Below, piece after piece: positions 2,575 through 25,037 of a stretch of 64,000 nt of DNA (position 1 is the first letter of the stretch; each line of letters starts with the position of its first letter). Both the position numbers and the translations under genes were made by a program. The stretch covers positions 352,001 to 416,000 of the forward strand of contig CAWJSJ010000001.1 in NCBI GenBank assembly GCA_963845565.1. The letters run 5' to 3'. The DNA is from an uncultured Methylomirabilota bacterium (GTDB lineage: Bacteria > Methylomirabilota > Methylomirabilia > Methylomirabilales > 2-02-FULL-66-22). The notes beneath the pieces were generated by a model. It was given only the letters and a program-made list of their open reading frames with translations, made no database searches and had not been told where the DNA came from.

Positions 2575-3225
2575 CTACCGGTTGGCCCGGCAGTGGACGA
2601 CGACGTTGCACACCAGACGCTCGATCCGGCGGATCGTCAGTACCCGGGCGAGACGTCCGACATACACCTCGCTTCGTCTGTCCTTGAAGAAATTGACGGC
2701 GATCTCTCCGGTGGGTCCGGCGAGCGTCTTGAGCTGCCGGAGGAACGGCCGGGCCAAAGCGCCCCGCTGAAAAACGCGGCCGCGGAAAAGGTCCACCGCC
2801 ACGTAATCGAACTGGGCGCGGCACCCGGCCGCGTACGCGAAGGCGTCGCCGATGACGATCTCGAGGTTGGGCAAGGCGAGATCGAAGTGGCGACGAGCGA
2901 ATTCGATCAGGCCGGCGTCGTTGTCCACGCCCACGATCCGCACGGCGGGAAATCGTCGGGTGAGCAGATGGGCGAGCGTGCCGGCCCCCACCCCCAGCAG
3001 CAGGGCGGTGCGCGGCACGCCGTCGGGCAGCATGGCCGCCCAGTAGCCGAACGGCGGATCCCGGTCCGTCACCGCAACCGAGAGGATCACGCCGCCCACC
3101 GCGAGCACGCGGTGGCCTTCGTATTCTTCGATCCGCAGCGGCGCCTCGCTTCCGATCACCGCGGACGTTGCCGCATTTCCCGCGGCGCTGTGTAGATCAC
3201 CCAGGTGTTGTGTGGGCTCAGGCAC
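2575..3225 (-). CDS. Class I SAM-dependent methyltransferase, spermidine-synthase-like
   Basis: LLLGVGAGTLA, VGVDND, GDAFAY, FDYVAVDLF motifs. Confidence 0.75.
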   Translation of the reverse strand: MPEPTQHLGDLHSAAGNAATSAVIGSEAPLRIEEYEGHRVLAVGGVILSVAVTDRDPPFGYWAAMLPDGVPRTALLLGVGAGTLAHLLTRRFPAVRIVGVDNDAGLIEFARRHFDLALPNLEIVIGDAFAYAAGCRAQFDYVAVDLFRGRVFQRGALARPFLRQLKTLAGPTGEIAVNFFKDRRSEVYVGRLARVLTIRRIERLVCNVVVHCRANR

Positions 3226-19222: not shown

Positions 19223-19606
19223 CGCCGACCTCGCCCGTGCGCTGGCTCGAGACGCGCAAGCTCCCGAAGGGGCGGCGGCGAAACCGGCGCCTGGATCGAG
19301 AGTTGCCAGGGAGGTCTTCGCGGAGCTGGGGCAGGAGGTGGCCGAAGCGGGGCCGGAAACAGAACTGCCGCAGGCGATCAGATTCGAGCCATGCAGCGTC
19401 TCCCCTTTGGTCGCCGACGCCGGTCCTCGCGACCCCACCTTCGGAGCCGGTTCCCACGTCTGAGTCTTGAATCCTCTGGGCGACCCGCCGGGAAGCCTCG
19501 CACTTCGTGGCGAGAGAGCTGCTCTGCTCTGATCCCTGCGGCTACTCATAAGGTAGGACGCGCCCGCCATTCCGTCAAGGGGTCGGCGAAAGAAAAGTCG
19601 TTTTCC

Positions 19607-20644
19607 ATGAGTGATAAATGGGTAGACCGCAAAGCGGCCGCCTGGCACGCCCTATGGGATCGATGCCCCGGTTTGGGGTGGCTCCGCACCTGGGGGGTGT
19701 CCGGTATCTCCATCTGCTCGGGGCTGGTCACCCTTCTCATTTTTCGCCGCGGAATAGAGTATTTTCCGTTGGTTATCGGCTATCTCCTCTTACTGTGGCT
19801 GGCGGGCGTGCTGTTGGCGGAGCACCGCCAGCGCCTGTCCGAACGGGCGCCGCGGGCGGTAACGACGGCCATCGACTATACGGTCCAGACCCTGCTGCAT
19901 GGCCTGCTGCTCTTTCTGTTGCCCATTTACTACGCCAGCACGACACTGACTTCCGGGAACGTCTGGTTTTTGCTCGTCCTGGTCGGTTCCAGCATCCTGA
20001 CAACCATCGACCCGTGGTATCGGACTGTGACCGAACAGGCTCGGTGGGTCGAGTCCGCGCTCTTTGGGCTCGGGTTGTTTTCCGCGCTGAATGTGGCTTT
20101 TCCTCTCGTCGGGGTGGCGAGCGGCACGGCGCTCCTCCTGAGCGGCTCCGCGAGCGTGCTGGCTCTCAGCCCCATCTTCCGCCGGGGCCTGGGTGCGGGG
20201 TGGGCGGCGGCGGCGCTGCGGGCCGGGTGCGGGGCGGTGGCCATCGCCATCGGTCTGTGGCTGGTGCGCGAGTGGATGCCGCCGGTTCCACTGCACCTGA
20301 CCCACTACACTTTTGCCAGGGCCGTGGACCAATTGGAGCCAGTGGAGCCCGCCGTCCGGATCGCTCGGGAGACACTGCAGGCCTGGGGGAAATTGTTCGC
20401 CTATACCGCGGTCGCGGCTCCTGCCGGACTTCGTGAGCCGGTGCACCACGCCTGGCAGAAGAACGGGCGGACCGTGGCGGTCATGCCTTCCACCACGGTG
20501 CAGGGTGGGCGACGGGGCGGGTTTCGGGTCTATTCCTGGAAGGCTGACCTCGGGGCCGACCCGGCGGGCGTGTGGCAGGTCGAGGTGCGCACGGCAGGTG
20601 GCCAACTCATCGGCCGGGCTCAGTTGCTGGTCACCGATCCATAG
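19607..20644 (+). CDS. Membrane protein with C-terminal DUF2914-like domain
   Basis: Multiple TM helices; C-terminal GGRRGGFRVYSWK...GVWQVEVRTAGGQLIGR. Confidence 0.65.
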   Translation: MSDKWVDRKAAAWHALWDRCPGLGWLRTWGVSGISICSGLVTLLIFRRGIEYFPLVIGYLLLLWLAGVLLAEHRQRLSERAPRAVTTAIDYTVQTLLHGLLLFLLPIYYASTTLTSGNVWFLLVLVGSSILTTIDPWYRTVTEQARWVESALFGLGLFSALNVAFPLVGVASGTALLLSGSASVLALSPIFRRGLGAGWAAAALRAGCGAVAIAIGLWLVREWMPPVPLHLTHYTFARAVDQLEPVEPAVRIARETLQAWGKLFAYTAVAAPAGLREPVHHAWQKNGRTVAVMPSTTVQGGRRGGFRVYSWKADLGADPAGVWQVEVRTAGGQLIGRAQLLVTDP

Positions 20645-22029
20645 TCGCCACCGGCGAAAGCGGACGGCGGGGGCGGGGCGGATCTGGTCTGCCTACGCGC
20701 CGCTCGGATCCACAGCGCGACCTGCGACGCGCTGGGGGGTCGCTCGGCGACGGCTGCCCGCCAGCGTGGAAGTAACAGCGGAGGGACGCACTGCGCCAGC
20801 TCTTCCACGGTGGCGATGTCCAGACGCCTGAGCGCATTGTAGTTCACGGCGCCGAGTCCCTGGAGATCCACCAGCGCGGCCGCGGCGCGCAGCGTCTGTA
20901 GCTCGCCCTCCGGGACCTGACTTTGGCGGGAGAGCCGCGTGATGCGCTCCGCCGTGTCGGTATGCCGGAGCAGCGCCGGCGGCGTCTTCACGCCGGATTG
21001 CCCCAGTCGCTCCACGACATCCCCGGGCACCCCCTCCATCGCCGCCAGCGTCGGCGCGACGCTCTTGACCGTCCATCGGTCGATGCCCGCATAGGTGAAG
21101 CCGTTGAACGCCAGCGCCAGCGCGATGGCGGGGACGGCGATGCCGAGCGGTGTGCCGCGACCGGCCGAGTCCGAGGTTTCCCAGTTTCGTCCCCGGCGGA
21201 TGACGTTCAGTAGATTGACGAGCACATAGGACGTGACCGCAAACGCCGGGAAACCGAGAAACCCGAGCGGGGGCATCTCGAACCACTTCAGGTCTTCGAG
21301 GTGGGGGACAGTGTAGAGCCACTTCGTGTAGGCCCAGAAGTTCCAGAACTCCCACAGTCCTCCGCAGACAAAACCCGCCAGCAACAACCGCAGCAAGGGC
21401 CGAGGGTCTCCACGCTCAAGCTGCCGGGCGAGCGAGACGGTCCGGGGGCTCGCCCAGTAACACAGCGGCTCCCCCAGGAAGATCGCGAAACCCCAAATCA
21501 GCGGGAAGGCGACCCTGGGCCAGACGAGTGGAGCGATGAGCATCCCGAGGCCGAGTATTACCGATCCGGCCAGGCCGACAGAGGCGATCCGCCGGGGGCG
21601 CATCTTGATCCCGTTGGCGACTCCGTACGCGTCCAGAAGTAGATAGGTTTCGAAAAGCGCCGGAAGGACGGTTGCGTATGAGATAAAGTTAAATAACAAG
21701 GCGAGGGGCTGGTCGGCAGGTGTATTGACGTAGAACCAGTTCTGGAGTCGAAAGTTCAGCAACTCGAACAGGTTCCATAGGGGGACGGACCAGAAGGCCA
21801 GAAACCAGAACTCCCACGGGCGGCTCCGCAAGAGCGATGCCCCGCACCGTCTCCACGCGCAGGCGTCGATGAGGAGGATGTACGACCACCAAGCGATGCC
21901 GTAAAAGAACATCGGGATCGGGGCGACGTCGAGGAAAAGGCCCGCCTTCCCGGCGAGGAGACTCGCCATCCCGACCCACCCATACCATGGGAGAGTGCGC
22001 TCGTCCGATCCGCGGGAACCGCCCGGCAC
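20620..22029 (-). CDS. Polytopic membrane protein with C-terminal DUF4332-like helix-hairpin-helix domain
   Basis: AAGGAGG RBS before GTG 22029. WNLFELLN..NWFY, GLWEFWNFWAYTKWLY, FEMPPLGFLGF; C-terminal EGV..G...L...GV and QGLG..L..L HhH-like repeats. Confidence 0.7.
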   Translation of the reverse strand: MPGGSRGSDERTLPWYGWVGMASLLAGKAGLFLDVAPIPMFFYGIAWWSYILLIDACAWRRCGASLLRSRPWEFWFLAFWSVPLWNLFELLNFRLQNWFYVNTPADQPLALLFNFISYATVLPALFETYLLLDAYGVANGIKMRPRRIASVGLAGSVILGLGMLIAPLVWPRVAFPLIWGFAIFLGEPLCYWASPRTVSLARQLERGDPRPLLRLLLAGFVCGGLWEFWNFWAYTKWLYTVPHLEDLKWFEMPPLGFLGFPAFAVTSYVLVNLLNVIRRGRNWETSDSAGRGTPLGIAVPAIALALAFNGFTYAGIDRWTVKSVAPTLAAMEGVPGDVVERLGQSGVKTPPALLRHTDTAERITRLSRQSQVPEGELQTLRAAAALVDLQGLGAVNYNALRRLDIATVEELAQCVPPLLLPRWRAAVAERPPSASQVALWIRAARRQTRSAPPPPSAFAGGDYGSVTSN

Positions 22030-22207
22030 GTTTTCCGCCCTCCTTTCGTGCCATTCTACCTCCGGTGCACGCGATGGCAAGTCTTTCCCCGTTGTGCCGC
22101 CGCTTGCCTTTACCGGATAGCTCGGGTATTCTTTGGCGGTCATGCATCCAAACGCCCGACCGACCGATCAAGCCTCTTGCGGCGTCTCCTCGACAACGAG
22201 ACGTGCC

Positions 22208-23830
22208 GTGCGGCGCATTCTTCTTGGCGGCCTCCTCGCCATTCTGTGGTCTGGTGTGGCTTGTGCCGGCGAGGACACGCAGCTCGAGGCGAGTATCCTC
22301 CGGGTCAAGCCGGCGGTGGTGCTGATCAGCAGCGAGGTGGGGGCCGAGGTGGCGATCAGTTGCGGGATTGGCCCCATTCACCAGGTGCGGCCCGACCCCC
22401 TCTACGAGACAGGGAGCGGCTTCATCCTGCATCCGGATGGTTTCATCGCGACCAACGGCCACGTCGTCGAGCGCTTTTATGAGATGAACGAGCAGCGACT
22501 CGCCAAGGAGTTCCTCGAAAAAGCCGCGGTGGACGCGTGCGGGCCGGCGCTGGCCATGGTGCCCGAGGGGGCGCGAAAGGAGCGGCTCCGCGCGATCGTG
22601 GACGACCCGGCGAACCGGGGCAAGGTCCGTTTGGTGAAGAAGCTCCACGTGCATCTGTCCACCGGAAAGATCTACGGCGCCGAGGTCAAGGCGTACAGTC
22701 CGGCCATCAAGCCGGAGGGGATCACGGCGGGCAAGAGCGCCTCGGAGGGCGGGAAGCCGGAGGCGGAGCGATCCGGAAAGGACATCGCCATCCTGAAGAT
22801 CGCCGAACGCGATCTGCCGACGCTGCGGCTCGCCCCGAGCAGCGGCATGCTGAAACTGGGCGAGCAGATCTTCGTGATCGGTTATCCGGGCGTGGTCTTG
22901 AATCACGATTTCCTCAGCCGGAAGTCGCAACTCGAGGCATCGGTGACGGTGGGGCGGGTGTCGGGTTTCAAGATCGACGTCAACGATCGCAAGGTGATCC
23001 AGACCGATGCCGCCATCACCTGGGGTAACAGCGGCGGGCCGGCCTTCAATTTCCAGGGGGACGTCATCGGCGTGGCCACGTTCATCTCCACCACCCTGGA
23101 GGGCGATCAGGCCGTGCAGGGGTTCAATTTCCTCGTTCCGGGGGACGCGGTGCGCGACTTCTGCGGCATGATCGGCCTGACGCCGACCTCGGATACCCGG
23201 TTTATGAAGGAATGGGAACAGGGGGTCGCCGCCTATTTCCGCGGCGAGTACCAGCGGAGCCTCGGACATCTGAATACCGCCGAGAAGATCATGCCTGGTT
23301 TTCCGGATATTCAACGGCTGCGCGCCTATGTGCAGATGCGCGTGGACAAGCGCCCCCGCTTCATGCAGCGCGGGAAGACCGTCGGCCTGGGGGTCGGCGC
23401 CGTCCTGGTGGGCGTCCTGGTGATCGTGGGCGTGCGACGATATGCCACCGCACGGGCGAACGGCGGTCCCGCGGTCGTTCAACGCATCGGCGCGGACGAG
23501 ATTCGCCGGCGTCTGGAGACGGGAACGGGCGTCGCCCTGGTGGATGCCCGGCACGGGGCGGCGTTCGACATGTCGCCGGTCCAGGCGGCAGGCGCGGTGC
23601 ACTTTGACATCGATCACCCAGACGTTGAGGCGCTCCGGGTGCACGTGAAACCCGACGGCGAGGTCGTCGCCTATTGCACCTGACCCGACGAGGCCACCAG
23701 CGCCCGTGTGGCGCTGCAGTTGATGCGGGCGGGTTTCCATCGGGTCTCGGTGGTGCGCGGTGGGCTCCCGGCGCTGATGGAAGAAGGGGTGACCGTGGCG
23801 CCAAAGGACACCCCGACGGCCGCCGTGTGA
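22208..23830 (+). CDS. Probable selenoprotein: signal peptide - trypsin-like serine protease - helical/TPR-like region - TM - rhodanese domain with C-T-U loop (TGA 23681-23683)
   Basis: Triad ATNGHVV / KDIAILK / GNSGGP. After YCT-TGA the frame continues PDEATSARVALQLMRAGFHRVSVVRGGLPAL..., completing the rhodanese fold, to TGA 23828-23830. Start uncertain (22142 or 22208). Confidence 0.85.
23698..23716 (+). promoter_or_regulatory. Bacterial SECIS-like stem-loop
   Basis: CAGCGCC-CGTGT-GGCGCTG: 7-bp stem 14 nt after the UGA, with G at loop position 2. Confidence 0.65.
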
Positions 23831-23861
23831 CTGCCGGCTGCCTGGAGGAATCTGACCAGAC

Positions 23862-25037
23862 ATGAGCGACAACGGTACCCTCGCGCGTCGACAAGCGGGA
23901 TCTCGGGCCGGGAAGGGCCGGTGGTGCGGTTCGCCGTGGGCCCGGTGGGTGTGCGCGGCCTGGCTGGCGAGCGCCGCTGTCGGTCTCATGGCCTGGGCAG
24001 CACCCGCGGCCGAGGGGCCGGCGCGGGGTGGAAGCGGCCTCACCCAGGAGGAAGAGACGGTCATCGGGATCTACCGGGCGGCGGGGCCGGGCGTCGTCCA
24101 CATCTCCAGCACGGTGCTGAACCAGGACTTCTTCTTCCGGATCGTACCGGAGCGGGGCACCGGTTCCGGGTTTGTGGTGGATGACACGGGGCTGATCTTG
24201 ACCAATAACCACGTGGTGGAGAACGCGGAGAGTGTGGAGGTCACGTTGGCCGACAAGAGCAAGGTTCCCGCCAAGCTCGTGGGCCGCGACCCGCACAACG
24301 ACGTGGCCGTCATCCGGATCAGCGCTCCGCGGGAGAAGCTGACCCCCCTGCGGCTTGGCGACTCCACGCAATTGCTCGTCGGGCAGATGGCCGTTGCCAT
24401 CGGGAATCCGTTCGGTCTGGATCGTACCCTCACGCGGGGCGTGGTGAGCGCCGTAGGGCGCAGCCTGAAGTCGGAGACCGGCCGGCAGATCCGGAACATG
24501 ATCCAGACCGACGCCGCCATCAATCAAGGGAACTCCGGGGGTCCCCTGCTGAATTCGCGTGGCGAGGTGATCGGCATCAACACCGCCATCTTCACGCCGA
24601 GCGGCGGCTCGGTCGGGATCGGGTTTGCCGTGCCCGTCAACACGGTGAAGAAGATTCTGCCCCAGCTCATCGCCCGCGGCCGGGCGAGTCATCCGTGGCT
24701 GGGGATCAGTGGGAATGACATCACCCCGACCATGGTCAAGGCGCTCTCGCTTCCCGTCAAGGAGGGCGTGATCATCGGCCAGGTCGCGCCCAACGGGCCG
24801 GCGGCGCGTGCGGGCTTGCGGGGATCGCAGCGGCGGGTCCGCGTGGGCAATTACATGGTCAACGTCGGGGGCGACATCATCCAGGCGTTGGACGGTGAGA
24901 AGATCACCACGATGGACGATGCCACCGCGTTTCTCGACGACCGGAAGCGGGTGGGGGATGACGTGACGGTCGAGGGGCTTCGCGACGGGAAGCCGTTTGC
25001 GGTCACCGTGCGACTGGGCGAACTGCCGGAGAACTGA
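23862..25037 (+). CDS. HtrA/DegS-like trypsin serine protease with PDZ domain
   Basis: GTGSGF, LTNNHVV, DVAVIR, QTDAAINQGNSGGPL, PWLGI, GPAARAGL, GDII. Confidence 0.92.
   Translation: MSDNGTLARRQAGSRAGKGRWCGSPWARWVCAAWLASAAVGLMAWAAPAAEGPARGGSGLTQEEETVIGIYRAAGPGVVHISSTVLNQDFFFRIVPERGTGSGFVVDDTGLILTNNHVVENAESVEVTLADKSKVPAKLVGRDPHNDVAVIRISAPREKLTPLRLGDSTQLLVGQMAVAIGNPFGLDRTLTRGVVSAVGRSLKSETGRQIRNMIQTDAAINQGNSGGPLLNSRGEVIGINTAIFTPSGGSVGIGFAVPVNTVKKILPQLIARGRASHPWLGISGNDITPTMVKALSLPVKEGVIIGQVAPNGPAARAGLRGSQRRVRVGNYMVNVGGDIIQALDGEKITTMDDATAFLDDRKRVGDDVTVEGLRDGKPFAVTVRLGELPEN

Follow-up and report, generated by a model that had tools for sequence, protein, structure and literature searches.

The stretch of DNA analysed here, 64,000 nucleotides from an uncultured Methylomirabilota bacterium (contig CAWJSJ010000001.1, positions 352,001 to 416,000; hereafter the window), carries on its forward strand a gene that appears to encode a hidden selenoprotein, in which an exported HtrA-like serine protease would be joined through a membrane helix to a rhodanese domain with an in-frame UGA read as selenocysteine (Sec). 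The open reading frame (ORF; 22133..23683, + strand) closes with ...VVAYCT-TGA, this TGA lying at 23681-23683. We found that exactly 48 further open codons (PDEATSARVALQLMRAGFHRVSVVRGGLPALMEEGVTVAPKDTPTAAV) stand 3' of it, up to another TGA at 23828-23830, and that the Pfam Rhodanese match crosses the first TGA, with 30.5 bits against a cut-off of 22.2. The peptide GGLPALMEEGVTVAPK is part of the read-through product beyond residue 514. An original prediction, made from the letters of the window, had held that the ORF stops inside a rhodanese fold and that the 48 codons complete this domain, and both statements agree with the spanning Pfam match and the open frame. The same prediction let the feature begin at 22208, which did not hold: the likely start is ATG 22142, set from a Met column that is conserved across the orthologs. 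Residues are numbered along the 562-residue protein that begins at this ATG (Table 1).

A six-frame search of 40 relatives revealed a single internal TGA in the full-length orthologs (55-92% identity), two orthologs being without it. At 24 related loci, the column of this codon was occupied by TGA in 15, reading YC[DT]-TGA-PDE[AD][ST]SA, by Cys (TGT or TGC) in two (L012 and L030) and by Ser in three, all of them paralogs; the rhodanese domain was absent from four. Loci sampled from a second family, f9 (20 fetched, ~36% identity), showed TGA at the Sec column in 15/15 of those flagged as having one TGA (AYCTU[PK][DE]E), and the five flagged as having none carried Ser (three) or Glu (GAA; L058) or lacked Cys altogether (L062). 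Relatives at E <= 1e-40 were detected in 165 of 251 genomes across the phylum, f9 contributing 150 of its 159 genomes to this number. The phylum tally includes the unpublished genomes G075, G216 and G217, and the six-frame search includes G028; the sequence-level claims rest on none of these four.

The same column is where public annotation breaks off. Among the best 120 relatives in the public protein collection, 86 have ...YC[D/T/H] as their exact C-terminal end, 11 are full-length and all read YCDCPDE, and 23 are a paralog without the rhodanese domain. Three separate sources contribute database proteins 94-98% identical to the window protein, and these too break off at that residue. Moreover, the rhodanese domain has 19 columns that are invariant or nearly so, and 12 of these are located after the Sec column. 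As had been anticipated, homologs carry TGA or Cys at this position and keep the downstream frame. Such a pairing of UGA with Cys, together with conservation downstream, is at the sequence level the standard signature of a selenoprotein, and we take this signature to exclude a sequencing error, a pseudogene and a true stop. The in-gene UGA at 23681-23683 is almost certainly a Sec codon, and we have very little doubt that the hidden selenoprotein is real. The part after the UGA (window 23708-23830) is catalogued publicly as separate 'hypothetical proteins' of 40-60 residues (e.g. P0143, P0147 and P0148), a by-product of the missed Sec codon.

A quick maximum-likelihood tree was built (47 rows, without a mixture model, unrooted, long branches flagged), its rows having been picked partly by the residue at the Sec column. 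In the near clade the Sec and Cys forms are intermixed, and the starred branches force at least four changes of the Cys label; in the distant clade the Ser and Glu forms lie nested within Sec forms. The tree shows only the interleaving of Sec and Cys forms, and no ancestral state or direction is claimed from it. The distant ortholog L058 (G171:C84) has GAA (Glu) at the Sec column with the downstream hairpin described below intact, and its closest relative in the tree, L046, has TGA; the Glu codon may represent a recent loss or an assembly variant.

The genes for Sec insertion named in the original prediction are all present in the same genome: selA (494 bits), selB with its SelB-specific winged-helix domain (68 bits), selC, the tRNA-Sec with anticodon TCA, about 2.4 kb from selB, and selD (L004; G000:C2:254715-255656), which has an in-frame TGA of its own and is probably itself a selenoprotein. 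A second selenoprotein of the genome with a Cys-x-Sec (CxU) rhodanese domain, L042 (G000:C4:52321-52641, minus strand), is small and stand-alone, reads ...FYCG-TGA-PNEASAA... and lies directly downstream of a moaA-like radical S-adenosylmethionine gene, the own stop of which is TGA. The selenoproteome of this phylum is described as unusually large in sections of the review PMC13188914, where Deng et al. 2026 are cited for a Methylomirabilota genome with 63 predicted selenoproteins.

Fourteen nucleotides after the UGA, a perfect 7-bp stem is formed by CAGCGCC (23698-23704) and GGCGCUG (23710-23716) around the loop CGUGU (23705-23709), with a minimum free energy (MFE) of -11.8 kcal/mol in the window sequence; this is the 7-bp hairpin with a GU-containing loop that had been noted from the letters. 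We compared it across 32 distinct Sec-form segments, two of them stand-alone rhodaneses. The common part is a 5-bp core, GCGCC/GGCGC, with the loop CG[U/G]GU, and the stem reaches 7 bp in the window gene. The five core pairs are formed in 32, 32, 31, 32 and 32 of the 32 segments, and L027 shows a double compensatory change from C-G to U-A in the core stem. The pair next to the outermost (positions 19-35) is formed in 16/32; at the outermost (seventh) position, 13 segments have C-G, 6 have G-C and 13 have no pair. The loops are CGGGU (16), CGUGU (10), AGUGU (3), AGGAU (2) and CGUGC (1). All 32 hairpins have a loop of 3-5 nt, a G as second loop base followed by G or U, and 21 nt from UGA to loop; the upper stem measures 5-8 bp, and the MFE ranges from -7.6 to -12.9 kcal/mol across the whole set.

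The consensus bacterial Sec insertion sequence (SECIS; bSECIS for the bacterial type) model of Zhang and Gladyshev 2005, as given in section 5 and the figure 2 legend of PMC13188914, comprises a loop of 3-9 nt, a stem of 4-16 bp, a G among the first two loop bases, a UGA-to-loop distance of 16-37 nt, and an MFE <= -7.5 kcal/mol. These published constraints hold, 4/4, in 32/32 Sec-form segments, in line with the bSECIS-type element that had been expected. The window hairpin itself resembles the model in that loop, stem, spacing and MFE are all within limits, and differs from it in being very short and GC-rich. The E. coli fdhF SECIS element has a bulged U, which is absent from the window hairpin. 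When 14 Sec forms were aligned by codon, synonymous diversity averaged 0.40 gene-wide and 0.14 in the stem window, and of 196 six-codon windows the nine with the lowest values were all located within codons 511-527. Three Ser paralogs lack the hairpin (-3 kcal/mol). Being of bacterial SECIS form, the hairpin would recruit SelB with Sec-tRNA(Sec).

Table 1. Features of the candidate selenoprotein gene and its downstream neighbour (positions in the window; residues of the 562-residue protein)
Feature	Position	Strand	Basis or detail
Whole predicted selenoprotein gene	22142..23830	+	562 codons + terminal TGA; in-frame Sec-UGA = codon 514
Predicted N-terminal signal peptide or membrane anchor, residues ~18-42, ...RRAVRRILLGGLLAILWSGVACA/GE	22193..22267	+	Hydropathy; AlphaFold helix 18-36
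HtrA-like trypsin-fold serine protease domain without PDZ	22274..23170	+	Pfam Trypsin_2 1e-24
Triad codon His107	22460-22462	+	
Triad codon Asp214	22781-22783	+	
Triad codon Ser297	23030-23032	+	
Predicted periplasmic helical linker, three helices, residues ~344-405	23171..23356	+	AlphaFold
Predicted single transmembrane helix, residues ~411-432	23372..23437	+	Hydropathy; AlphaFold
Predicted cytoplasmic single-domain rhodanese fold with Sec codon, residues ~445-555	23474..23806	+	Pfam; AlphaFold; Foldseek
Cys512 codon TGC, predicted canonical rhodanese active-site Cys, end of central strand	23675..23677	+	
UGA almost certainly read as selenocysteine, Sec514	23681..23683	+	TGA at column in 32 distinct Sec-form segments
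Putative bSECIS-type hairpin	23698..23716	+	Within codons for S-A-R-V-A-L
Neighbouring conventional HtrA/DegP-type protease with PDZ	23862..25037	+	Pfam Trypsin_2 2e-38 + PDZ_2

The rhodanese tail modelled alone reached a predicted local distance difference test (pLDDT) score of 89.5 (34 sequences), and a Foldseek comparison with GlpE (1gmx) gave template modelling (TM) scores of 0.74/0.83 and a root-mean-square deviation of 2.3. A fold search was needed because a PDB sequence search with the rhodanese domain alone matched only Alr3790 rhodanese-like domains, at E 0.05-0.1. In both the tail model and the full-length model, residues 507-511 form a strand, 512-517 a loop (C-T-U-P-D-E) and 518-529 a helix. 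In rhodaneses, the catalytic Cys opens the loop that connects the central strand to the next helix. Cys512, invariant in 34 domain sequences, Ser-form paralogs included, closes the central strand and opens the loop in both models, so that Sec514 does not occupy the place of the catalytic Cys. In the modelled fold, Cys512 is the canonical catalytic residue and Sec514, a second residue of the loop, stands two positions after it rather than replacing it, giving the CxU motif C512-T-U514. The earlier proposal that the UGA falls where Cys is expected was right in that a minority of homologs carry Cys at this column, but not as regards the canonical catalytic Cys, which is Cys512.

We then consider the protease half. 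The triad residues His107, Asp214 and Ser297, which the original prediction had described as intact, are invariant in 25 aligned sequences. Foldseek with the protease domain returned HtrA1 (3nzi_A; E 7.8e-16, TM 0.75) as the top match, and a PDB sequence search gave MucD at 7e-17; overall, HtrA1, HtrA2 and MucD are the best matches. No PDZ family was found in the protein by Pfam at E <= 1, and the NCBIfam HtrA models score far under their cut-offs (degP_htrA_DO, 84.8 versus 416 bits). The protease also has long loop insertions modelled with low confidence by AlphaFold (residues 189-211 and 253-266).

Hydropathy shows an N-terminal peak at residues 23-44 and a second hydrophobic segment at residues 410-437, with the Kyte-Doolittle maximum of 2.56 at window 413. 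The predicted signal-peptide cleavage site was placed by an A-x-A motif. A lipoprotein signal was rejected, since conservation is lacking at Cys41 and position -3 does not match such a signal, and so was a twin-arginine (Tat) signal, as the RR is not conserved in orthologs. The full-length AlphaFold model opens with an N-terminal helix, continues with a two-barrel protease (59-333) and three helices (353-403), and closes with a long helix (406-440) and an alpha/beta domain (447-554); the linker helices span 353-366, 370-383 and 388-403 with pLDDT of 84-93. In these models the order of the architecture is signal peptide or anchor, exported protease, three-helix linker, one transmembrane helix and C-terminal rhodanese, and the arrangement proposed earlier, ending in a CxU rhodanese, is reproduced in agreement by Pfam, hydropathy and AlphaFold. 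With a signal sequence and then a single membrane helix, the protease would lie outside and the rhodanese domain inside, in the cytoplasm. Three kinds of relatives support a cytoplasmic C-terminus: a paralog in the same genome, composed of protease, membrane helix, rhodanese (Ser) and PilZ (2.9e-8), another paralog with an Arg-rich tail after the membrane helix, and stand-alone CxU rhodaneses without a signal peptide. PilZ is a cytoplasmic receptor domain for cyclic di-GMP (c-di-GMP).

Taken as a whole, we consider it highly probable that the best explanation is one gene at 22142-23830, codon 514 being decoded as Sec, the hairpin being of the bSECIS type and the product being a membrane protease-rhodanese. 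Several results weigh against this reading. The 86-nt fold of the window sequence alone is no better than that of shuffled sequences (z = -1.09; 28/200 shuffles fold equally well), so the case for the hairpin rests on the cross-genome comparison and not on thermodynamics. An Rfam scan of 23600-23860 at E <= 10 returned no SECIS family, its only match being a chance small-RNA match on the opposite strand. The hairpin overlaps the conserved S-A-R-V-A peptide, and its conservation is therefore partly at the protein level; one Cys form (L012) and the Glu form (L058) retain it intact as well, so that it is not exclusive to Sec forms. The NCBIfam model NF041203 (rhodanese_LYCAU) is the best rhodanese-type match (E 8e-17), but its score of 61 bits by hmmscan, or 57.8 in the genome search, is under the curated cut-off of 115. 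The full-length AlphaFold model is moderate (pLDDT 73.8, predicted TM score 0.58, 25 sequences). Finally, the charge balance on either side of the membrane helix (net +3 before, +2 after) gives no clear orientation, so that the topology rests on the N-terminal signal sequence and the paralogs.

In the mechanism that we tentatively favour, Cys512 would carry or attack a sulfane sulfur or disulfide substrate, Sec514 would act as the resolving or attacking selenolate, and a selenenylsulfide would link the two within the loop. As a redox or sulfur-state module, the cytoplasmic domain would tune the periplasmic protease across the membrane or tether it to a partner in the cytoplasm. When selenium is scarce, translation would halt at codon 514 and yield a protease with a broken tail domain. 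This chemistry, together with a redox or sulfur switch, is our favoured proposal and still has rather less than an even chance of being correct; the coupling between the protease and rhodanese domains, raised in the original prediction as a possible transmembrane redox-controlled protease, is something we infer only. A more specific version, in which the redox or persulfide state of the Cys-x-Sec rhodanese is relayed via the single helix or a rearrangement of the oligomer and so switches the HtrA-like protease in the periplasm, we regard as unlikely. If this were true, a selenium-dependent signalling protease would couple envelope proteolysis to the cytoplasmic sulfur, selenium or redox status, and the PilZ-tailed or Arg-rich-tailed paralogs would be sister inputs to the same output module.

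The main rival, at odds similar to those of the coupling and likewise only possible, is that the two modules are independent: the Sec-containing rhodanese would be a membrane-tethered sulfur/selenium transferase or reductase working for a cytoplasmic pathway, and the protease would merely share its polypeptide, with no signal crossing the membrane. Stand-alone CxU rhodaneses share the hairpin (L026, L027, the moaA-adjacent one of this genome and one in L022), the protease module occurs also without a cytoplasmic domain, and one membrane helix is ill suited to transmitting conformational signals. However, the fusion is retained in two deep lineages, with TGA in most full-length f9 rows among the matches listed, and the paralogs swap this tail for a PilZ-bearing one, which resembles an exchange of regulatory input modules.

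Far less credible is a true stop, which would leave a 513-residue protease with half a rhodanese and make the 48 downstream codons a separate small gene or untranslated sequence. The gene callers agree with it, since this TGA is where 86 of the best 120 database entries stop and the piece after the UGA is sometimes called as a 'hypothetical protein' of 40-60 aa. Nevertheless, protein-level conservation extends to the eight residues that lie after the TGA and before the first possible start (GTG 23708), the Cys forms run continuously through the column, and a domain cut after its central strand could not fold; we regard this explanation as very improbable. The least probable is that the TGA marks a pseudogene, an assembly or sequencing error, or another recoding (Trp, Gly or near-cognate read-through): L058 with GAA shows that the codon can mutate and nothing else specific speaks for it, whereas TGA recurs at the same column in 32 distinct segments of independent assemblies, the 94-98% identical database proteins from three sources are cut at the same residue, the alternative residue in homologs is Cys, the Sec signature, and not Trp or Gly, and TGA also terminates the window gene and nearby genes in a genome that has tRNA-Sec.

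The CxU rhodanese as such is already known: a CxU rhodanese-like domain-containing selenoprotein 'form 3', NF041203 rhodanese_LYCAU, is catalogued in the selenoprotein table of PMC13188914. Form 3 and the window domain are both single-domain rhodaneses with the canonical Cys followed by Sec two residues later, and stand-alone relatives share the hairpin of the window gene. The NF041203 model, however, describes a small protein of 126 positions, whereas the domain here would be the cytoplasmic tail of a 562-residue membrane protease, and the loop of the window gene is acidic (C-T-U-P-D-E). HtrA, DegP, DegS and MucD are periplasmic serine proteases of MEROPS family S1C. The window protein resembles this family in its trypsin fold, His-Asp-Ser triad and GNSGGP motif, but the family has one or more C-terminal PDZ domains, whereas none was found in the window protein, which is further distinguished by long insertions, the helical linker, anchoring in the membrane on the C-terminal side and a cytoplasmic domain. 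E. coli YgaP (PDB 2mrm), found at rank 37 of the structural matches, likewise has a cytoplasmic rhodanese anchored by a membrane helix, but neither protease nor Sec. An ocean-metagenome study predicted Sec-containing serine proteases, with Sec, in the portion of PMC2398784 concerned, either taking the place of a Cys within the trypsin domain (COG5640) or forming part of a CxxU motif; by comparison with the proteases of that portion, the protease domain of the window protein has no Sec, which lies instead in the fused rhodanese, as CxU. The words 'protease', 'trypsin' and 'peptidase' occur nowhere in the selenoprotein review PMC13188914, and these three and 'rhodanese' nowhere in the deep-Sep paper PMC12013277. 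A protease-rhodanese selenoprotein fusion is not described in the literature searched, and a prior listing in a bulk selenoprotein prediction is possible. The protease fusion appears to be a new context for a known type of selenoprotein domain.

These results point to a family of membrane proteases across the Methylomirabilota/Rokubacteria lineage that is truncated in public databases (86 of the best 120 ending at the Sec codon), and users of these annotations thus see neither the tail domain nor the selenium dependence. They also place a Cys-x-Sec rhodanese domain on the cytoplasmic end of an exported protease, and the tail-swapping paralogs offer a testable hypothesis on the role of CxU rhodaneses and on regulation of HtrA-like proteases from the cytoplasmic side. 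The fusion adds to the picture of a large selenoproteome in this phylum drawn in the cited sections of PMC13188914.

Around the gene, synteny is conserved: in 10 of 12 full-length loci from the same genus (L010-L020, L022), the fusion is followed on its own strand by an HtrA-like match; in the window, the 23862-25037 protease gene is followed by genes for a DUF192 protein and then a thioredoxin-fold AhpC/TSA-Redoxin protein. Upstream are a 507-residue membrane protein with a DUF4332 domain (20620-22143, minus strand) and a DUF5924/DUF2914 membrane protein (19391-20644). A stand-alone rhodanese gene with an in-frame TGA (2886-3200 on G008:C170) is found about 0.8 kb downstream of the fusion gene at L022. 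A short-protein search with residues 440-562 gave 28 matches, mostly fragments of same-family genes, and revealed no other architectures. The same-genome paralog L033 (G000:C2:139633-141246) has the same protease, linker and membrane helix, then a YCGSPGE rhodanese (Ser) and PilZ, which suggests a c-di-GMP input to a sister protease. The module of protease, linker and membrane helix also occurs without a rhodanese tail (L085-L093, L106 and L107; query residues ~26-445, ~40% identity), in genomes that bear Geobacter or Geobacteraceae in their titles and in a few differently labelled bins.

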